Shown: positions 12,482-57,972 of the stretch, in pieces
Layout of the letters: each line of letters begins with the position of its first letter
How positions within the stretch are numbered: position 1 is the first letter of the stretch
DNA from: an uncultured Alphaproteobacteria bacterium
GTDB lineage: Bacteria > Pseudomonadota > Alphaproteobacteria > UBA11222
Assembly (NCBI GenBank): GCA_947085295.1
Contig: CAMTVX010000005.1
Span: forward strand, 2,149 to 66,148
Reading direction: 5' to 3'
DNA length: 64,000 nucleotides
The notes under the pieces: model-generated
Seen by the model: the letters and a program-made list of their open reading frames with translations, nothing else
Databases searched by the model: none
What the model was told of the DNA's origin: nothing
Position numbers and translations under genes: made by a program

Positions 12482-14667
12482 AAATCACACCGGAAATCGT
12501 CGCCGAACACGGCCTGAAGCCGGATGAATATGCGCATATTCTGCGCGTGCTGAACCGCGAACCCAATATCACAGAGTTGGGAATATTCTCGGCGATGTGG
12601 AACGAGCATTGCTCGTACAAAAGCTCGCGCGTATGGCTGCGCACCATGCCCACTACCGGCCCACAGGTCGTATGCGGCCCCGGCGAAAACGCCGGCGTCG
12701 TCGATATTGGCGACGGTCAGGTGGCGATCTTCAAGATGGAAAGCCACAACCATCCCAGTTTTATCGAACCCTATCAGGGTGCGGCCACCGGCGTTGGCGG
12801 CATCATGCGCGATGTGTTCACGATGGGCGCGCGCCCCATCGCCAATCTGAACGCCCTGCGTTTTGGCGCACCCGATAATGCCAAAACCCGGCATCTGGTG
12901 TCCGGCGTTGTGGCGGGCATTGGCGGCTATGGCAATTGCATTGGCGTCCCCACGGTTGGCGGCGAAGTAAATTTCGACCCCGGCTATAATGGCAATATTC
13001 TGGTCAACGCCATGTGCATCGGCATCGCCGATGCGGACAAGGTGTTTTATTCCACCGCCAGCGGCATTGGAAATCCTGTCGTTTATGTCGGATCAAAAAC
13101 CGGCCGCGACGGCATTCACGGGGCCAGCATGGCGTCGGCGGAATTTGACGAAAACTCCGAAGAAAAACGCCCCACCGTACAGGTCGGTGATCCGTTCACG
13201 GAGAAATTGCTGCTGGAAGCCTGCCTGGAACTGATGGCGGGCGATGCGGTGATCGCCATTCAGGATATGGGTGCGGCTGGCCTTACCTGTTCAGCCGTCG
13301 AGATGGCGTCCAAAGGCAGGCTAGGCCTGGCGCTCGATCTCGACAAGGTGCCGTGCCGCGAAGCGGGCATGACCGCCTATGAAATGATGCTGTCCGAAAG
13401 CCAGGAACGCATGCTGATGGTGCTGCACCCGGACCGCGTTGATGCGGCGCGCGCCATTTTCAACCGCTGGGAACTGGATTTCGCCATTGTCGGTAAAACC
13501 ACCGATACGGGCCGTTTTATCATCCACCACAAAGGTGAACAGGTTGCCGATCTACCCGTCGATGTATTGGCCGAACAGGCCCCTGTCTATCAGCGCCCCT
13601 GGACGCCCACGCCACCCGCGCCATATTTATCTGCAACAGATATTCCCGATACGGATGATCTGGGCGCAACCCTTGCCCGGTTGATGGGCGGCCCGCATCT
13701 GGCCAGCCGCCGCTGGATATGGGAACAATATGATCACATGGTCATGGGCGACACCGTACAACGTCCGGGCGGCGACGCCGCCGTGGTGCGCGTGCATAAC
13801 AGCCGCAAGGGTATTGCCGCCACCACCGATGTCACGCCGCGCTATTGCGCCGCGTCGCCCGTCGAGGGTGGCAAACAGGCCATCGCCGAAGCCTTCCGCA
13901 ATCTGTCCGCCGTCGGCGCAAAACCATTGGCCACCACCGACTGCCTGAATTTCGGAAATCCAGAACGCCCCGAAATCATGGGGCAGTTTGTCGGTTGTGT
14001 TCAGGGCATCAGCGAAGCCTGTATCGCACTGGACATGCCCATCGTGTCCGGCAATGTGTCGCTATATAATGAAACCATGGGTGCGGCGATACCGCCCACG
14101 CCTGCCATTGGCGCCATTGGCCTGCTGGAAGATATTGATCGCATGGCGACCATTGCCTTCAAACAGGATGGCGATGTGATTTTGCTTATCGGTGACAGCA
14201 ATGGTCATCTGGGGCAATCCATCTATGCCCGTGAAATTTCCGGACGCACCGATGGCGCGCCTCCGCCCGTTGATCTGGTGGCCGAACGCCGTAATGGCGA
14301 TTTTATCCGTGAACAGATCATTTCGGGAAATGTCACCGCTGCGCATGATATTTCGGATGGCGGCCTTCTGGTAGCGCTTGCCGAAATGGCGTTGGCCGGG
14401 GATCGGGGCTGTACGCTGAACCTGCCAAAAAAATCTGTTCTGCGTCATGCATATCTGTTCGGCGAAGATCAGGCGCGCTATGTGTTGAGCGCATCGCCCA
14501 TAAAGGCCGATGTCCTGATCGCGGCCGCAAACGCGCAAAATATTCCCGTAACAAAACTGGGTGCGGTAGGTGGACGCGATATCGTGCTGGACGGCAAGCC
14601 GGTGCATGCCGTTTCAGCCCTTCGCCATGCCCATGAAAACTGGTTTCCCCACTATATGGAGGGCTGA
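12472..14667 (+). CDS. purL: Phosphoribosylformylglycinamidine synthase subunit PurL
   Basis: 731 aa with the AIR-synthase-related domain architecture of FGAM synthase II ([13 protein letters not shown]...). Confidence 0.9.
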
Positions 14668-15890: not shown

Positions 15891-15926
15891 ATCGTTTCAT
15901 TATTTGACCGAATCGTCCCACTCCGG

Positions 15927-16061
15927 CGTCATTACGAGGAGCGAAGCGACGTGGCAATCCACCAAGCCTTCGCCAGAAGGCTACGGCTGGCAAAGGAGTC
16001 ACAAACTCAGGTCTTTGCGCGAGACTCTGGATTGCCACGCCTTCGGCTCGCAATGACAACG
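15927..16061. repeat. Nested palindromic intergenic repeat, family 1, copy 1 (135 bp, carries a 43-bp internal insert)
   Basis: Terminal inverted repeats CGTCATTACGAGGAGCGAAGCGACGTGGCAATCC ... GGATTGCCACGCCTTCGGCTCGCAATGACA. The internal module ACCAAGCCTTCGCCAGAAGGCTACGGCTGGCAAAGGAGTCACA is shared with copy 2. Confidence 0.8.
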
Positions 16062-22937: not shown

Positions 22938-23032
22938 TCACCCCACCCCAACCCCTCCCCATAAAGGGGAGGGGCTTACCGCCGGGATATAATCTTCTCC
23001 CTCCCCCTCGTGGGGAGGGCCGGGGTGGGGGG
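22938..23032. repeat. G/C-rich nested palindromic repeat, family 2, copy A (intercistronic between the mccB and hydratase genes)
   Basis: CCCCACCCCAACCCCTCCCCATAAAGGGGAGGGGCTTACC...CTCCCTCCCCCTCGTGGGGAGGGCCGGGGTGGGGGG. A second copy lies at 55074-55206. Confidence 0.75.
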
Positions 23033-26959: not shown

Positions 26960-27082
26960 GTCATTGCGCGCGAAGCGTGGCAATCCACCAAGCCTTCGCC
27001 AGAAGGCTACGGCTGGCAAAGGAGTCACACGGATAGGCCTTCGCGTACGGCTCTGGATCGCCACGCTTCGCTCGCGATGACG
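26960..27082. repeat. Nested palindromic intergenic repeat, family 1, copy 2 (123 bp, with the 43-bp insert)
   Basis: GTCATTGCGCGCGAAGCGTGGCAATCC + shared insert ... GGATCGCCACGCTTCGCTCGCGATGACG. Confidence 0.8.
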
Positions 27083-27125
27083 ATAAAGGATATGACTGCA
27101 TCTAAAAAAACACCACGCCATAAAC

Positions 27126-28740: not shown

Positions 28741-28766
28741 AATATAATGGACCCATTTTCCTCCGA

Positions 28767-28862
28767 CGTCATTGCGAGGAGCGAAGCGACGCGGCAATCC
28801 AGAGTCTCACGCAAAGGCCTGAGTTTGTGACTCTGGATTGCCGCGCTTCGCTCGCAATGACG
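28767..28862. repeat. Nested palindromic intergenic repeat, family 1, copy 3 (96 bp, no insert, core in inverted orientation)
   Basis: CGTCATTGCGAGGAGCGAAGCGACGCGGCAATCCAGAGTC...GACTCTGGATTGCCGCGCTTCGCTCGCAATGACG. Confidence 0.8.
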
Positions 28863-28911
28863 ATTAAGGATATGAACAGACCTATAATCACCATGCGCTA
28901 GTATAACATCT

Positions 28912-33233: not shown

Positions 33234-34565
33234 TCAGATCATGTTATCCGGCAACTGCATATTTACCGGCGCGAATCGCGCATGGAAGGCCGTTTCCTGT
33301 GTCTTGTATGCCGGATCGACAAATTCCAGATAGGGGGCCGCCAGCAAATGCTGGCCAAGCCATAATCCCGGCGTGGCCTGACAGATAATTTTAGGTGGCA
33401 GTTTTTTGGGCAACGCGCCCCGTAACTGCTTCAGGCCCGCACTGCCCACCTCGCGCACCGTGCAGGACGAAAAATCACGCATGTTCCCGATCCCGGAAAG
33501 CCGAACCTGGAACCGGTTATCCCACACAATATCATCACCAGGCGACAGGGCGATTTCAGGCCCGATTGCCGCCAGCTCCCGCGCAACCAGAATTTTATCA
33601 CCTTTCAACAGGATCCGGCACCCTGACAGGGTGCGTCCGCCGGTCTTCGGGCGCTGCCGCAACCAGTCATAAAGCCTTTCCAGTCGCACCAGACGCGGCG
33701 GATATTCCTGCCCGCCCACGGCCATCAGCACGCGCGCCAGCAACCGCAAACCAATCTCTTCCGGCGCCTCGAAAATTGCGTCAGGACGCAACCCCGCAAA
33801 CCCCGCCCGCTCCCATCGCACCGTGTCGCGCATAAGCTGCGCCGTCGCATGTTCCAGCGCGCTGCGTACCCGCTGCATGCGATGCGCCGTTGCCACAATC
33901 CGTGCCGCGCCAACGCCCGCTTCGGACAGATTTTCAAGCACATTGCGCGCCCGCACACGTCCAAAACGCTGGTCATTATTGCTGGAGTCTTCAATCCAGG
34001 ACTGCCCGCACGACAGCAGGGTCGCCCGCAGGCGCTGCCTGGTAAAGCCCAGTAGCGGCCGCAACAGGCGCACCCCGCCCCATTGCCGTTCGGCGGCCAT
34101 CGCCGCCAGTCCGTCTACGCCACTGCCACGGCCCAGCCGCATCAGGAATGTTTCGGCCTGATCGTCAAACTGATGCCCCAGCAGCAGACAGGGAATACCC
34201 ATCTTCCGGCATGTTTGCGTCAGCAAGGCATAGCGCGCCTGACGCGCCGCCGCCTGAATATCGCTATGCGGCTTGTCACCCTGCCAGTGCAAAATCTGAT
34301 GTGAAACACCCATCGCCCGACACCAGTCGGCAACCTGCTGCGCTTCCACCAGCGAGGCATCGCGCAAACCATGATCAACCGTCAGCGCCAATAGCTGCCC
34401 CTGATTGCCGCATGCGTTCAGCCAGCGGTGTGTCAGATGCAACAGCGCCATACTGTCAGCGCCGCCCGAAACCGCCACAGCAACAGGTGTTTGGGGAGAA
34501 AGCGCCCACAGCGCGCCGGCAAATTCCAGATCACTCACAGGCGCTGCATTAAAGATGTCAGCCAT
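33234..34565 (-). CDS. tilS: tRNA(Ile)-lysidine synthetase
   Basis: The PP-loop motif VAVSGGADSMAL identifies it (443 aa). Confidence 0.8.
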   Translation of the reverse strand: MADIFNAAPVSDLEFAGALWALSPQTPVAVAVSGGADSMALLHLTHRWLNACGNQGQLLALTVDHGLRDASLVEAQQVADWCRAMGVSHQILHWQGDKPHSDIQAAARQARYALLTQTCRKMGIPCLLLGHQFDDQAETFLMRLGRGSGVDGLAAMAAERQWGGVRLLRPLLGFTRQRLRATLLSCGQSWIEDSSNNDQRFGRVRARNVLENLSEAGVGAARIVATAHRMQRVRSALEHATAQLMRDTVRWERAGFAGLRPDAIFEAPEEIGLRLLARVLMAVGGQEYPPRLVRLERLYDWLRQRPKTGGRTLSGCRILLKGDKILVARELAAIGPEIALSPGDDIVWDNRFQVRLSGIGNMRDFSSCTVREVGSAGLKQLRGALPKKLPPKIICQATPGLWLGQHLLAAPYLEFVDPAYKTQETAFHARFAPVNMQLPDNMI

Positions 34566-44865: not shown

Positions 44866-44961
44866 GACTTTCTTTCGTCATTGCGAGCGAAGCGCGGCAA
44901 TCCAGAGTCCCACGCGAAGACCTGAGTTTGTGACTCTGGATTGCCGCGTCGCTACGCTCCT
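44866..44961. repeat. Nested palindromic intergenic repeat, family 1, copy 4 (96 bp)
   Basis: CGTCATTGCGAGCGAAGCGCGGCAATCCAGAGTC...GACTCTGGATTGCCGCGTCGCTACGCTCCTCGCAATGACG. Confidence 0.8.
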
Positions 44962-45007
44962 CGCAATGACGGCGGAGAGGCTGTGCTTCAATCAAATCTG
45001 AAATGCC

Positions 45008-52881: not shown

Positions 52882-53020
52882 GTCGCCAGACTATCCGAAA
52901 ATAGCCTTATTTTCTAAGCCCGATTTTCTGCCCCTGTTTTAGCGCCATTGAAAGGCCGCAATGCACCGGATAATGTCCCAATAAAGGGAGTCTCTCCTGA
53001 ATAGGGATTCGCCAGCCCAT

Positions 53021-53096
53021 TAGACCGACAAATGTCCCTTAGACCTACAAATGCCCCTTAGACCTACAAATGCCCCTTAGACCTACAAATGAAAGG
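53021..53096. repeat. Tandem direct repeat array, 19-bp unit TAGACCTACAAATGCCCCT x about 4
   Basis: The units are 53021-53039 (TAGACCGACAAATGTCCCT), 53040-53058, 53059-77 (the middle two identical) and 53078-53096 (degenerate at its 3' end). Confidence 0.85.
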
Positions 53097-53110
53097 CACA
53101 GTGCCGAACG

Positions 53111-53251
53111 ATGTCAAAGCTGCTTGGTTCCATACTGGTTTTGCTCGTCGCCATATTTATCGGCGGAGCGATTTATATTTCAATCTGGGACGTGCCACCA
53201 CCGGTGCGCACTGTCGAGAAAGTCTTGCCGGATGAAATGCTGGGCAAGTAA
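53111..53251 (+). CDS. Candidate small membrane protein (46 aa), not in the ORF track
   Basis: ATG 53111 to TAA 53249-53251 encodes MSKLLGSILVLLVAIFIGGAIYISIWDVPPPVRTVEKVLPDEMLGK, one clean TM helix. It starts 14 bp after the tandem repeat array and overlaps the start of the next gene by 20 nt. Confidence 0.3.
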   Translation: MSKLLGSILVLLVAIFIGGAIYISIWDVPPPVRTVEKVLPDEMLGK

Positions 53252-55016
53252 CCGCAGTCGGCATATCGCATTTTTCTCCGGTTTTCTTGGTGTTGCGGTT
53301 GTTGCTCTTGCGCATGGCATCGCACAGGCACAGGCCCCGATACCGCTTCGTCCACCATCTGAACTGGCGCCTGCCACACCTCTGCCCCCTGTCACTGAGG
53401 AATATCCCGCCGAAACTGAAAATGACGGCATCAGCACGGGTGCGCTTGGGCAACTGGATTTTGCTTCTGTCGGGATACTGACGGCTGACAGTGGCGGCTT
53501 TGGGCCACAGACATGGCAAGGTGCGGATCGCGCCCTGGTGGAGCGTCTGCTGCCAAAATTACCGGTTACGACACACTCCCCCACCCTGCAAAAGCTGATG
53601 CGGCGACTATTGCTCAGCACCGCCGAACCGCCACAGGGAACCAGTACCGGCGCATCCTTCATTGGTTTGCGTCTTGAGCGGCTGATAAAGGCCGGACACT
53701 TTGAACAGGCTGCACAGATGTCCGCACTGGCGGGTGGCCCCACCAGGGACGAAGCCCTGTTACAGGCACGTGCCGAAATTGCGCTGGCATCTAACGAATT
53801 CAAACAGGCCTGTGATATGGCCGCAGCACAGGTTCGCGCCAGCGAGGCTGTCTTCTGGCTGAAACTCACCGGGTTTTGCCAGATCATCAATGGCGATGAG
53901 GCCGCAACGCAATTGACCGCATCCCTGGTCGCCGAACAGGAACCGGACGATACCGGATATCAACGTCTGCTGGCTGCGCTGATCAGCAAATCCGGCAGGC
54001 TGCCAGAAAATCTGCCGCATCTGGACATCCTGCAATTAGCGATGATCCGATTTGCATCACTACCACTGCCAGAAAAAATTGACGATCATGCTGCACCCGC
54101 TGTTTTGAAATTGATGGCGCGCATGCCCGGCGCATCGGTGCAACAACGCCTGCCCGCCGCCGAACGCGCCGAGGCCGCAGGCGCAATAGGCCCGCAAGAG
54201 GTGGCCCAGCTTTACTCTGAAATGCCCTTCACCGTGGAAGATCGCGCCGGGGCCGCTGAACTGGCGACAACACTGCCCCCCGCCCAGGCCAACGCCTTGC
54301 TGTTCCAGTCCGTGCGCGGACAGGATTCCACCGCCGGCCTGACACTTGCGCTATCCGCTGCATGGCGGCTTGCCCGCGCCAGCAACAGTTTTGCAACCGT
54401 TTCCCGTGTCAATCTGACCCCCATACGCGATCTGGTTCCCGCGCCGGAAATGATCGAAATTGCCGCTGAAGCCGGTCGCGCATTGCTGCTGGCGGGCGAT
54501 CCTTTGGCCGCGACTCGCTGGTATGATCTGGCCCGCGCATTAAGCATTCCCGGCAACAATCCCGCCGCAACGCGCGCCAAAAATGACCTGTGGCCGTTGT
54601 TGCGGCTGGCGCAACCTGTTGCGGGCATACCAGAGGATCCTCTCGAAATCACCGCCTGGCTGGCGCAATTATCGCCAGAGGATAAAACCCGCAAGGGGCC
54701 TATCCTGCTCTCCGCCATGTCGGCGCTGGATATGGCCACACCGGAGTCCGAATGGGTCGCCATGGCGCAGGATACCAAAAAAACCGATGCGGCTGCGATG
54801 CCGCCAGCGGCGTTGCTGCATCTGCTGATGGAAGCCAGCCAGAGCGGGCGCGTCGGGCAAACCGTTTTGTTAAGCCTTGCCTGTCTGGGCGAAAATGGCG
54901 CGGGCCTGACGGACCCGTTATTGCTGGGAATTACCGTGCGCGCGCTCAACACCGTTGGTTTGCAGACAGAAGCCCGCGCACTAGCGCTGGAGGCGGCGTT
55001 GCAGGCTGGGATTTAG
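53232..55016 (+). CDS. Secreted Ala/Leu-rich helical protein of unknown function (signal peptide; about 594 aa)
   Basis: An internal ATG at 53232 gives the signal peptide MKCWASNRSRHIAFFSGFLGVAVVALAHGIAQAQA; the track's 54 upstream codons are probably not translated. The rest is predicted largely alpha-helical and repeat-like. It lies between aroK and xerD. Confidence 0.5.
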   Translation: MKCWASNRSRHIAFFSGFLGVAVVALAHGIAQAQAPIPLRPPSELAPATPLPPVTEEYPAETENDGISTGALGQLDFASVGILTADSGGFGPQTWQGADRALVERLLPKLPVTTHSPTLQKLMRRLLLSTAEPPQGTSTGASFIGLRLERLIKAGHFEQAAQMSALAGGPTRDEALLQARAEIALASNEFKQACDMAAAQVRASEAVFWLKLTGFCQIINGDEAATQLTASLVAEQEPDDTGYQRLLAALISKSGRLPENLPHLDILQLAMIRFASLPLPEKIDDHAAPAVLKLMARMPGASVQQRLPAAERAEAAGAIGPQEVAQLYSEMPFTVEDRAGAAELATTLPPAQANALLFQSVRGQDSTAGLTLALSAAWRLARASNSFATVSRVNLTPIRDLVPAPEMIEIAAEAGRALLLAGDPLAATRWYDLARALSIPGNNPAATRAKNDLWPLLRLAQPVAGIPEDPLEITAWLAQLSPEDKTRKGPILLSAMSALDMATPESEWVAMAQDTKKTDAAAMPPAALLHLLMEASQSGRVGQTVLLSLACLGENGAGLTDPLLLGITVRALNTVGLQTEARALALEAALQAGI

Positions 55017-55073: not shown

Positions 55074-55206
55074 CTCCACCCCACCCCAACCCCTCCCCAT
55101 CAGAGGGGAGGGGCTTTACCACCGCGTTCTGATCTTCTTCTCCCTCCCCCTCTCGCCAAGCGAAGCTTTGGCGTAGCTTTGTGCGGGGAGGGCCGGGGTG
55201 GGGGGA
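55074..55206. repeat. G/C-rich nested palindromic repeat, family 2, copy B (with a 32-bp insert)
   Basis: CTCCACCCCACCCCAACCCCTCCCCATCAGAGGGGAGGGGCTTTACC...CTCCCTCCCCCTC[TCGCCAAGCGAAGCTTTGGCGTAGCTTTGTGC]GGGGAGGGCCGGGGTGGGGGG. It ends 10 bp before the xerD start. Confidence 0.75.
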
Positions 55207-55216
55207 GAATGAGCAC

Positions 55217-56134
55217 ATGACCAAGGCGCATTTTGATCCGCTGATCGAGGCATTTCTGGAAATGCTTTCGGCGGAGCGTGGGGCTGCCGCCAACACGCTT
55301 GCCGCCTATGGCCGCGATCTGACCGGGTTCAGGGATTTTCTGACGCGCCGGAATATCACTCTCAAAGACGCCGACGCGGAAATTATTCGCCGCTATCTGG
55401 ATGGACTATCCTCAGCGGGGTTAAGTGCGGCAACCGCCGCGCGGCAATTATCCGCCATCCGGCAATTTTACCGCTTTCTGCTTTCCGATGGCATGCGCCA
55501 GGAAGACCCATCCAGCAATTTAGACGGCCCGCGCCGCCGCCGTCCCCTGCCCAGGATAATGGGCGAGAGCGATGTTGACCGGCTGATTGCCAGCGCACAG
55601 GCGCGCAATGAGACACCGCAGGCGGCACGACTATGCTGTCTGCTGGAAATTCTCTATGCCACCGGTTTGCGGGTCAGCGAACTGGTCAGCCTGCCACTGG
55701 GCGCCGTGCGCAATGATCCGCATCTGTTGCTGGTGCGCGGCAAAGGTGGCCGCGAACGTCTGGTGCCGCTGGGCGATCCGGCGCGCGCGGCGATTGAAAA
55801 ATATCTTGCCGTGCGCGCGTATTTTCTGGGCGAGGGGCAGCAGTCAAAATTCCTGTTTCCCTCTCGCGGCGGCAGCGGCCATCTGACCCGCCACCGCTTC
55901 GCGCAATTGCTGGGAGAACTGGCGGCAGAAGCCGGATTACCTGCGCACAGTATTTCACCCCACACCCTGCGTCACGCCTTCGCCACGCACCTGCTGGCGC
56001 ACGGCGCCGATCTGCGCGCCGTGCAGCAAATGCTGGGCCATGCCGATATTTCCACCACCGAAATCTACACCCACGTCCTGACCGCCCGCATGCAGGCGCT
56101 GGTCAAACAGCACCATCCGCTGGCGAAAAACTAA
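55217..56134 (+). CDS. xerD: Site-specific tyrosine recombinase XerD
   Basis: The start MTKAHFDPLIEAFLEMLSAERGAA at 55217 and the C-terminal catalytic R...HxxR...Y region (LRHAFATHLLAHGADLRAVQQMLGHADISTTEIYTHV) identify it. The track's 12 extra N-terminal codons are read through repeat family 2 copy B. Confidence 0.85.
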   Translation: MTKAHFDPLIEAFLEMLSAERGAAANTLAAYGRDLTGFRDFLTRRNITLKDADAEIIRRYLDGLSSAGLSAATAARQLSAIRQFYRFLLSDGMRQEDPSSNLDGPRRRRPLPRIMGESDVDRLIASAQARNETPQAARLCCLLEILYATGLRVSELVSLPLGAVRNDPHLLLVRGKGGRERLVPLGDPARAAIEKYLAVRAYFLGEGQQSKFLFPSRGGSGHLTRHRFAQLLGELAAEAGLPAHSISPHTLRHAFATHLLAHGADLRAVQQMLGHADISTTEIYTHVLTARMQALVKQHHPLAKN

Positions 56135-56158
56135 TGTAACAGCCCCCTTGTTTTAACT

Positions 56159-56171
56159 ACCCTTATAGGGT
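56159..56171. promoter_or_regulatory. Palindrome ACCCT-TAT-AGGGT, candidate MqsA operator
   Basis: Seen directly in the sequence 13 bp upstream of the mqsR start. It resembles the E. coli MqsA-binding motif ACCT-(N)n-AGGT. Confidence 0.4.
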
Positions 56172-56183
56172 AATATTCTCCCC

Positions 56184-56486
56184 GTGGAAAAACGCACAGC
56201 CCATTATGATCTTGCGAGCGTCCAGTTGGCTGCTGCGCAACTGGGGGCGGCGGCATTCACAAAGACTGCTCTTGATGGCGGCCGGAATATGGGCCTGACC
56301 TTGAGCGAAATGCTTACGGTGATCGCTTCACTGACACGGCGCGATTTCTATAAGTCTATGACAGCTTTCGCCGATCATCGGGTGTGGTAGGACGTGTACC
56401 ATGCAACAACACCCGTCAGGAAAGACGCCTATATCAAGATTACGATGCGCGATTCAGCACCAGTGATTCAGTTCAAGGAGAAGTGA
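56184..56486 (+). pseudogene. mqsR: mqsR toxin (MqsR/YgiU family ribonuclease) inactivated by an in-frame TAG at 56388-56390
   Basis: From GTG 56184 the translation is MEKRTAHYDLASVQLAAAQLGAAAFTKTALDGGRNMGLTLSEMLTVIASLTRRDFYKSMTAFADHRVW*DVYHATTPVRKDAYIKITMRDSAPVIQFKEK*. It is collinear with E. coli MqsR (MEKRTPHT...DFYKSMTTYSDHTIWQDVYRP...YLKIT...FKEK); the stop replaces the Gln in the WQDVY motif, and the frame is otherwise intact through the normal stop at 56484-56486. Confidence 0.7.
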
Positions 56487-56488
56487 AC

Positions 56489-56890
56489 ATGGCCCGGAAA
56501 TGTCTAAATTGTGAAACCCGCAAGGGCATGAAGCGTTTTGAGGATGAGACCTTCAGTATCACACATGCCGGGTTATCAACGGATGTCGAAGGGCTTTCGG
56601 GCTGGCGCTGCGCAAACTGTGATGAAGCAGAGTTTGATGCCGCCAGCGCCCGGCGTTATGCGGTGGCAGGCGACAAGTTGGTGTTGCGCAGTCGCGCACA
56701 GCAGAGCAAAGAAATTCGCCGTATCCGCCGCAAGCTGGGTTTAAGCCAGGTGGCGGCCGCACGTCTCACCGGCGGTGGCCATAACGCATTCTCCCGCTAT
56801 GAACGCGGAGAAGCGGCCCCGTTGCCCGCCGTAATCAATTTGTTCCGACTTCTGGACAGGCATCCGGAGCTGCTGAAAGACCTGGTGTGA
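56489..56890 (+). CDS. mqsA: MqsA antitoxin / HTH-XRE transcriptional regulator with an N-terminal zinc-ribbon
   Basis: An AAGGAG SD precedes ATG 56489. The product MARKCLNCETRKGM...WRCANCDEAEF carries the Cys4 zinc site, and the C-terminal region IRRIRRKLGLSQVAAARLTGGGHNAFSRYERGEAAPLPAVINLFRLLDRHPELL matches E. coli MqsA (...GGGVNAFSRYEKGNAQPHPSTIKLLRVLDKHPELL). Confidence 0.8.
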   Translation: MARKCLNCETRKGMKRFEDETFSITHAGLSTDVEGLSGWRCANCDEAEFDAASARRYAVAGDKLVLRSRAQQSKEIRRIRRKLGLSQVAAARLTGGGHNAFSRYERGEAAPLPAVINLFRLLDRHPELLKDLV

Positions 56891-57012
56891 GGGTGCAGGC
56901 ATCGGCAAAACGCTAATGCCGGGGCGGGAGTAAAATCGCCACCCCACCCCGGCTTGACAGCGCCCGGTGTCCGGGCCACAAAGCGGGTCGTTGTCACAAT
57001 GGTCAGGGGCCA

Positions 57013-57972
57013 ATGCGGACCTATCTGGATTTTGAAAAGCCGGTCGCGGAACTCGAAGATAAAATCGAGGAATTGCGCCAATTAGCCGCCAAAGACGCCT
57101 CAATGACCATCAGCGATGAGGTGGCCCGGCTGGAAACCAAGGCGGCCACCTTGCTGCGCCAAAGCTATACGCGGCTGACCCCCTGGCAAAAAACCCTGGT
57201 GGCGCGCCATCCGAACCGGCCGCATTGCCTTGATTATGTGGGCCAGCTTTTGACCGAATTTACCCCGCTGGCCGGGGATCGCGGTTTTGCTGAGGATAGC
57301 GCTATTATCGGCGGCCTAGGGCGGTTGAACGGTCGGCCCATCATGCTGATCGGACAGGAAAAAGGCGCCGATACGGATGGCCGGGTGCGGCATAATTTCG
57401 GCATGGCGCGGCCCGAAGGCTATCGCAAGGCCATGCGCCTGATGGATTTGGCGGAAAAATTCAAATTGCCGGTCGTCACCCTGATTGACACGCCTGGGGC
57501 CTATCCCGGTGTCGGGGCCGAAGAACGCGGCCAGGCCGAAGCTATTGCGCGCTCAACCGATCGCTGCCTGTCATTGCAGGTGCCATTAATTGCGATCATC
57601 ATCGGTGAAGGCATGTCCGGCGGCGCCATCGCGCTGGCAGCGGGCAACCGGGTGATCATGCTGGAACATGCAATTTATTCAGTGATCAGCCCTGAAGGTT
57701 GCTCGTCAATTTTATGGCGCGCTGCCGACAAGGCCAAAGACGCCGCCGCCGCCATGAAACTGACGGCGCAGGAATTACTGGCGCTGGGAATTATCGACAC
57801 GATCATCCCCGAACCCATCGGCGGCGCACACCGCGAGCCAATGCAGACCATCCGTCAAACCGGGCTGGTCATTGAAAATGCCCTGACGGAATTAGATGGC
57901 TGGGACGCAAACGAGGTTCGCAAGACCCGCCGCGAGAAGTTCCTGAACATAGGACGCCAGGGGCTGCTTTAG
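57013..57972 (+). CDS. accA: Acetyl-CoA carboxylase carboxyltransferase subunit alpha
   Basis: 319 aa ([22 protein letters not shown]...[16 protein letters not shown]...), matching the AccA carboxyltransferase alpha-subunit family. Confidence 0.9.

Follow-up and report, generated by a model that had tools for sequence, protein, structure and literature searches.

A toxin-antitoxin (TA) module of the MqsR/MqsA family (MqsRA) was analysed in a 64,000-nt stretch of DNA (the window; contig CAMTVX010000005.1, positions 2,149 to 66,148) from an uncultured alphaproteobacterium of the lineage UBA11222. The module is a chromosomal type II TA system that sits between the core genes xerD and accA. Its toxin gene, mqsR, is interrupted by an in-frame TAG, while its antitoxin gene, mqsA, is open. 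We consider it highly probable that the locus reflects the recent pseudogenisation of mqsR by a CAG-to-TAG change with mqsA and the operator kept, that is, the first step of a toxin-first decay. The locus had been singled out before in a reading of the window made without database searches (the sequence-only reading). The module comprises the following elements, numbered from the first letter of the window:

56148-56176, plus strand: putative mqsRA promoter, with -35-like TTGTTT (56148-56153), 17-nt spacer and -10-like TAATAT (56171-56176), read manually
56158-56172, no strand assigned: operator-like palindrome TACCCT-TAT-AGGGTA, exact match, in the promoter spacer and overlapping the -10
56184-56486, plus strand: mqsR toxin pseudogene, GTG start, 100 codons plus TGA, one nonsense codon (Pfam PF15723, 3HI2 alignment)
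56388-56390, plus strand: TAG nonsense codon, codon 69, equivalent to Gln68 of E. coli MqsR, ancestral CAG (alignments, second assembly)
56475-56480, plus strand: Shine-Dalgarno sequence AAGGAG of mqsA, inside the mqsR FKEK codons, 8 nt 5' of the ATG (read from the sequence)
56489-56890, plus strand: mqsA antitoxin and helix-turn-helix (HTH) repressor, intact, 133 aa (Pfam PF15731, 3GN5/3O9X alignment)

The translation of 56184-56486 reads VEKRTAHYDLASVQLAAAQLGAAAFTKTALDGGRNMGLTLSEMLTVIASLTRRDFYKSMTAFADHRVW, stop, DVYHATTPVRKDAYIKITMRDSAPVIQFKEK, stop. It starts with VEKRTAHY and contains a single internal stop, which is preceded by HRVW. When codon 69 was taken as Gln, the translated protein matched the Pfam family MqsR_toxin (PF15723) over profile positions 1-95 of 95 with 114 bits (E 3.8e-33; cut-off 26.2 bits), and the 68-aa fragment on its own scored 66 bits. 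The alignment of the 100-aa Gln-read protein with E. coli MqsR (PDB 3HI2 chain B; phmmer E 4e-17) covered the protein completely. Here the residue facing the stop is the Q of the WQDVY motif, which corresponds to Gln68 after a 3-residue PDB tag and one gap, and the equivalents of Y81 and K96 (in YIKIT and FKEK) lie in frame 3' of the TAG. The sequence-only reading had assigned the two open reading frames (ORFs) to mqsR and mqsA, had described the first as collinear with E. coli MqsR and had noted the Y81 and K96 codons after the stop; the profile matches and the alignments to the solved E. coli structures bear this out. It had also called the lost residue the catalytic Gln. The position is indeed that of Gln68, but the word catalytic goes slightly beyond the published evidence: alanine scanning showed that K56, Q68, Y81 and K96 are needed for toxicity of E. 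coli MqsR, and Q68 is also buried in a secondary interface with MqsA (PMC2791442). At the corresponding positions of the window gene, the codons for K57, Y83 and K98 are present and Q69 is the stop, and Y83 and K98 are thus untranslated. An uninterrupted mqsR frame of about 98-100 codons was found in neither of two assemblies, both of which have the TAG in frame. Judged from these features, the gene is a member of the mqsR family by descent, yet a pseudogene without an intact ORF and with an incomplete set of toxicity residues.

The ancestral codon was read from relatives, whose loci are given here as L numbers. Gln occupies the stop column in every one of the 17 close homologues that were aligned (78-85% identity). 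At the nucleotide level, TGG CAG GA in L083, L082 and L001 faces TGG TAG GA in the window, and the alignment of relatives thereby confirmed the single C-to-T transition that had been proposed. A stop can arise in mqsR by only 6 transitions, of which CAG to TAG is one, and by about 30 single-base changes overall. That the Gln68 codon was hit calls for no special explanation.

The same TAG was present in a separate assembly. Logan contig L081 (run ERR3478703; 1,234 bp) has an mqsR frame identical to that of the window, and differs from the window at eight other places in its 1,234 bp, one synonymous site in mqsA and seven sites in accA. As the TAG occurs in L081 despite these differences, it is not the product of one assembler and is common to two or more haplotypes or consensus sequences that differ slightly. 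In the JGI metagenomes, a 35-mer that allowed C or T at the variable site had no exact match, and neither the CAG nor the TAG allele of this species was retrieved. TAG terminates 7 of the 43 long ORFs of the window, including accA at its canonical 319 aa, and no tRNA gene, a suppressor included, was found in the window. Stop-codon reassignment or pyrrolysine was rejected on the grounds of these seven terminators and of the Gln found at this column in all homologues.

The inactivation of mqsR looks recent. The TAG is the sole lesion in the window gene. Ratios of non-synonymous to synonymous substitution rates (dN/dS) were calculated pairwise by the Nei-Gojobori method, and for the mqsR codons after the stop they amount to 0.05-0.10 against L082 and L001. 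In a comparison of the last 55 mqsR codons with L083, 13 synonymous and 2 non-synonymous differences were counted. The lack of a second lesion together with the low dN/dS after the stop suggests that mqsR was under purifying selection until very recently, which agrees with the age given in the sequence-only reading.

The antitoxin gene follows directly, with the TGA of mqsR at 56484-56486 and the ATG of mqsA at 56489; the toxin gene is likewise first in 113 intact related loci. MqsA matched Pfam MqsA_antitoxin (PF15731) over profile positions 2-130 of 131 with 97 bits (E 1.1e-27; cut-off 30 bits), gave further matches to HTH_31 and HTH_3, and aligned with the E. coli MqsA structures 3GN5 (E 2e-19) and 3O9X. 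The cysteines of the N-terminal Zn-ribbon, C5, C8, C41 and C44, are kept (CLNC, CANC) and align with CPVC and CVHC of E. coli MqsA. In the C-terminal HTH domain the segment GGGHNAFSRYE aligns with E. coli GGGVNAFSRYE, whose Asn and Arg reportedly contact bases in the 3O9X study. The dN/dS of mqsA against relatives is 0.07-0.13. The TCAAGGAGAAGTGAACATG block, which holds the mqsA Shine-Dalgarno stretch, is conserved across the orthologous loci, including those in which mqsR is deleted. Hence the sequence-only reading was right to regard mqsA as intact, as it was about an exact palindrome, ACCCT-TAT-AGGGT, in the promoter.

The core of this palindrome, ACCCTTATAGGGT, spans 56159-56171 and the extended form, TACCCTTATAGGGTA, spans 56158-56172; it lies 12 nt before the GTG start. 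Of 93 related loci that were fetched, from Alpha-, Beta- and Gammaproteobacteria, Acidobacteriota and Planctomycetota, 79 have an ACCCT-N3-AGGGT core exactly once, about 25 nt 5' of their mqsR start, which strengthens the reading of the palindrome as an operator. A comparison of the orthologous loci shows no change in the arms but different spacers (TAT, TGC, TAC), as would be expected of a site for a dimeric repressor. The experimentally defined MqsA site of E. coli and P. putida is ACCT-N3-AGGT, with a spacer of irrelevant sequence, and MqsR is no co-repressor but destabilises the binding of MqsA to DNA (PMC4894380, PMC5422877). The palindrome of the window resembles this site as a variant one base longer in each arm and is a putative operator. 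TTG and TAAT(A/T)T promoter elements occur at the same spacing in L001, L002 and L082. A scan of 55900-57100 for consensus promoters and terminators called nothing; the promoter went uncalled because its -35 element matches at only 3 of 6 positions. The GTG start of mqsR has no Shine-Dalgarno sequence and lies 8 nt past the -10-like TAATAT (56171-56186), in contrast to mqsA with its AAGGAG and ATG; the relatives have GTG, TTG or ATG at the same spot. This arrangement suggests that the mqsR mRNA is leaderless or nearly so, or that the toxin is very weakly translated. Two further exact ACCCT-N3-AGGGT cores occur in the window, at 12768-12780 and 33620-33632, making 3 in 64 kb where 0.04 were expected from shuffled sequences. 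They were not accepted as MqsA operators: one lies in the coding sequence of purL, at a conserved EPYQG motif, and the other inside tilS, and both are probably codon-driven.

The xerD/mqsRA/accA arrangement is common to related metagenome-assembled genomes (MAGs) and contigs, so that the state of the module can be compared at one chromosomal site. The site is bounded in the window by two genes:

55217-56134, plus strand: xerD, tyrosine recombinase, upstream boundary (Pfam Phage_integrase and Phage_int_SAM_1)
57013-57972, plus strand: accA, acetyl-CoA carboxylase carboxyltransferase alpha, downstream boundary (Pfam ACCA, E 1e-139), ends with TAG

The start of xerD is probably the ATG at 55217 (MTKAHFDP), matching the MTKAHFDP start of the L002 ortholog, and accA is syntenic in L001, L002, L082 and L084. 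At this site the following states of the module were found:

L001 and L082: mqsR intact; mqsA intact
L083: 3' part of mqsR with CAG (contig-end fragment); mqsA intact
Window and L081: mqsR with the amber codon at the Q68 equivalent; mqsA intact
L002: mqsR with an in-frame internal deletion that leaves a 17-codon stub (VEKRTPHYDLKGIFKEK, stop); mqsA intact, with operator, stop/Shine-Dalgarno block and start unchanged
L084-L093: mqsR wholly deleted; mqsA a pseudogene, with E46 changed to a stop and truncation at residue 113, adjoining an inserted Na+/H+ exchanger gene

L002 is 92% identical to the window in XerD, 94% in AccA and 88% in MqsA. The lineage L084-L093, represented by at least 17 contigs from many samples, is 96% identical in XerD (as scored for L084) and 94-97% in AccA. 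Its deletion runs from just past the operator to the codons just before a retained KEK-stop/Shine-Dalgarno stretch, and the operator, AACTACCCTTACAGGGTAATA, is thereby placed about 10 nt 5' of TCAAGGAGAAGTGAACATG. Because their end points differ, the L002 and L084-type deletions are independent events. As for the nonsense mutation of the window, it either counts as a third event or was possibly the precursor from which the L084-type deletion arose. The mqsR deletions seen in separate lineages (L002:3920-4003, L037:3957-4003 and L084:321-364) spare the operator, the stop/Shine-Dalgarno block and the mqsA start; the mini-ORF left behind has 17 codons in L002, consists only of MEKEK and a stop in the Planctomycetota locus L037, and is absent in L084.

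Dead toxin genes recur in this MqsRA subfamily. The state of mqsR beside a full-length mqsA was scored by profile hidden Markov model in 146 related loci, 80 from genomes and 66 assessable ones from JGI metagenomes. A disrupted mqsR was found in 17/80 genome loci (8 by large deletion) and in 10/66 metagenome loci (5 by large deletion), about 18% in total. Sequencing errors may account for some of the frameshifts, those from long-read MAGs, but not for the deletions. In each of the 28 orphan mqsA genes the frame is open and the four cysteines and the two contact residues, Asn and Arg, are kept, and the orphans resemble the consensus no less than the paired genes do; the palindrome is kept in 8/14 deletion-type orphans and the FKEK/Shine-Dalgarno stretch in 13/14. 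As resemblance to full-length MqsA was the basis on which the loci had been retrieved, these figures are subject to ascertainment bias.

Three loci have a nonsense codon as the sole frame-breaking lesion of mqsR, and the stops fall at the equivalents of Q68 (window), K56 (L127:454-765) and Y81 (L016:3696-3998). Only 5 of the roughly 30 single-base stop routes fall at the four toxicity codons; this comparison is post hoc, with n = 3. As the mqsR genes of L127 and L016 also hold other non-conservative changes, the position of the stops at toxicity codons may be coincidence.

Based on these data, we propose the following course of events. Read from the GTG, the toxin ORF ends at codon 68, and its product would be without the equivalents of Gln68, Tyr81 and Lys96. 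From the structure and mutagenesis of the E. coli protein, such a product, devoid of strands beta4-beta6, would have no mRNA-cleaving activity and would probably be unstable. MqsA would still be made and would still repress the operon through the palindrome overlapping the -10, as is suggested by its intact sequence, its conserved contacts and the conserved operator. Since mqsA has its own strong Shine-Dalgarno sequence and ATG, it has no need of ribosomes arriving from mqsR. Without a toxin to dislodge MqsA, the operon would settle into steady autorepression. Loss of a TA pair must begin with the toxin, because loss of the antitoxin first would poison the cell, and toxin-first is the only viable order of decay. 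Later steps would then be as in the sister lineages, where the toxin remnant was deleted and, in at least one lineage, mqsA was subsequently lost. Several points weigh against this account. The TAG, read from assemblies, may be polymorphic rather than fixed in the population. A second mqsR copy or an amber suppressor may exist elsewhere in the genome, beyond the window. The mqsRA promoter is weak by consensus and was not called by the scanner, the promoter model being drawn from manual reading and conservation; and a GTG without Shine-Dalgarno sequence 8 nt after a putative -10 is an unusual context for initiation, so that this model may be wrong.

Three other explanations leave a toxin, or a part of it, in place. 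We regard it as very improbable that the TAG is a sequencing or assembly artefact, or a minority variant, and that the true sequence is CAG with an intact toxin. The source is a metagenome-assembled contig judged from assemblies alone, and the exact 68-aa product is absent from the protein collection. However, L081 has the same TAG along with its eight other differences, a substitution error giving an in-frame stop in both assemblies is improbable, and no intact allele of at least 90% identity was found among 5.8 billion protein clusters or in the JGI metagenomes. The sequencing error that the sequence-only reading had named as a possible refutation is thus not borne out. Leaky termination has hardly better prospects. 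Here, rare read-through of UAG by a near-cognate tRNA-Gln or a suppressor would restore wild-type MqsR and leave a down-tuned TA system with an attenuated toxin; if this were true, the dose of toxin would depend on translational fidelity or stress. Because the stop stands in the place of a Gln codon, insertion of Gln would yield the ancestral protein. In E. coli without suppressors, it is usually Gln that is inserted at UAG. All of mqsR downstream of the TAG is intact and in frame. A recent mutation explains the intact downstream frame equally well, however, and TAG is a normal terminator of long ORFs in this DNA, accA among them. The base after the TAG is G, which is not known as a notably leaky context, the window holds no tRNA gene, and the outright deletion of mqsR in relatives suggests that its loss is tolerated or favoured. 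A function of the 68-aa fragment, either alone or together with a 30-aa C-terminal piece starting at GTG 56394, for example as a non-toxic modulator that releases MqsA from DNA, is likewise most unlikely. The fragment would keep the beta2 region with most positions of the primary interface in E. coli (Thr24, Thr25, Arg26, Leu29, Asp33, Phe39 and Asp40; PMC2791442), and the GTG 3 nt past the TAG opens a 30-codon frame to the normal stop. In E. coli MqsR the strand order of the central sheet is beta1-3-4-5-6-2 (PMC2791442), and truncation would remove beta6, the sheet partner of the MqsA-binding beta2, along with beta4-beta5 and Ile92. Having lost these parts, the fragment is unlikely to fold, which speaks against the working 68-aa product that the sequence-only reading had offered as an alternative. 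Moreover, the AGGA lies only 1 nt before GTG 56394, too close for a Shine-Dalgarno sequence, and the relatives share no conserved truncation point, their lesions lying elsewhere.

A domesticated orphan MqsA, which the sequence-only reading had raised as a possibility, is the more serious contender, plausible in our view though less likely than not. According to this explanation, selection keeps mqsA as a functional one-gene system: MqsA would be an autoregulated transcription factor that also acts on other targets, or it would confer immunity to MqsR arriving on mobile elements. The undiminished mqsA genes at all 28 loci with a dead mqsR would fit, although their retrieval by similarity to full-length MqsA favours intact genes. 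The dN/dS of L002 mqsA is 0.08-0.14, but pairwise dN/dS cannot single out the time after toxin loss. The operator and the Shine-Dalgarno stretch were spared in 8/14 and 13/14 deletion orphans, with several neat in-frame deletions (L002, L037); on the other hand, operator and promoter were lost in 6/14. In both E. coli and P. putida, MqsA acts as a regulator at other promoters as well (PMC4894380, PMC5422877), whereas the only two extra palindromes of the window both lie in purL or tilS coding sequence. An anti-addiction role gains little support from the plasmid-borne relatives of MqsR, which are at most about 46% identical over the full length, and a plasmid origin or an anti-addiction partner was rejected for want of a close mobile counterpart. 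Finally, in the closest lineage by flanking genes (L084-L093), mqsA acquired a nonsense codon and a 3' truncation after mqsR had been lost.

We therefore favour toxin-first decay, of which this locus is an ordinary and recurrent case; degenerate TA loci and orphan antitoxins are already well documented (e.g. PMC10790755). Its importance is modest: it offers a clean and datable case in which TA decay has taken its first step, with later steps at the same chromosomal site in sister lineages. Annotation should list mqsR among the pseudogenes, and counts of active TA systems should leave the locus out. With about 1 in 6 loci holding a dead toxin beside an intact mqsA, the MqsRA subfamily is a usable natural test set for the question of whether antitoxins are kept for regulatory or protective roles of their own after toxin loss.

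Further features were observed around the module. The space between mqsA and accA holds a different cargo in each relative: an unannotated 234-aa ORF in L001 (4399-5103), a 164-aa ORF in L083 (576-1067), which on direct comparison is unrelated to the L001 version, and the Na+/H+ exchanger gene on the minus strand in L084 (823-2013). Given this varying cargo, the xerD-accA gap behaves as a small variable insertion spot. Folding of the mqsA-accA spacer of the window gave no structure beyond shuffled controls (z = -0.9). The module had been placed immediately after xerD and a repeat element. It is indeed flanked by xerD, which ends at 56134, but the repeat lies upstream of xerD and not beside mqsRA. 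This hairpin-forming repeat, CACCCCACCCCAACCCCTCCCCAT..GGGGAGGGG (55077-55112, with a second copy at 22939-22974), resembles repetitive extragenic palindromic (REP) elements and is part of an insert of about 185 bp between the upstream 648-aa gene and xerD. L002 lacks this insert, and there a gap of 16 bp separates the two genes. The repeat was discarded as a part of mqsRA, being unconnected to the module. Another palindromic family (..GCAATCCAGAGTC.CACG....CCTGAGTTTGTGACTCTGGATTGC..), similar to REP elements or miniature inverted-repeat transposable elements, has at least four copies in the window (15921-16040, 26976-27095, 28761-28875 and 44875-44977). In L084-L093 a related copy (L084:125-320) is inserted between xerD and the mqsRA operator, adjoining the mqsR deletion. 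The 648-aa ORF itself (53070-55016) matched no Pfam family; directly before it and overlapping its start, at 53015-53090, about four copies of the 19-nt unit GCCC(A/C)TTAGACC(G/T)ACAAAT form a head-to-tail tandem array.

Compared with known systems, the module resembles MqsR/MqsA of E. coli K-12 (YgiU/YgiT; PDB 3HI2, 3GN5 and 3O9X). Both are toxin-first operons with a gap of a few bases between stop and start. The RelE-like fold of MqsR is collinear, with the WQDVY, YxKIT and FKEK motifs and the equivalents of K56, Y81 and K96 kept in the window frame, and MqsA shares the N-terminal Zn-ribbon, the C-terminal HTH with its GGGxNAFSRYE segment and a palindromic operator in the promoter. Unlike in E. 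coli, the toxin of the window is interrupted at the Gln68 codon, the half-site is ACCCT instead of (A)ACCT, and there is one palindrome instead of two; the proteins are moderately identical in sequence (phmmer E 4e-17 for MqsR, 2e-19 for MqsA), and the host is an alphaproteobacterium with the module at the xerD-accA site. In Pseudomonas putida KT2440 (PP_4205/PP_4204) a single palindrome also lies directly before mqsR and overlaps its translation/transcription signals; MqsA alone represses, and the MqsR-MqsA complex does not bind DNA (PMC5422877). The P. putida locus differs in its palindrome, TTAACCT-GGA-AGGTTAA, and in that both genes are intact and toxicity has been demonstrated. With the orphan antitoxins, which are abundant in E. 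coli lineages and have been discussed as possible anti-addiction modules or regulators (PMC10790755), and with degenerate TA loci in general, the window shares an inactivated toxin and a retained antitoxin. In contrast to the latter, it is caught at the earliest stage, with one nonsense codon and no other decay, and the later stages are found in its sister lineages.

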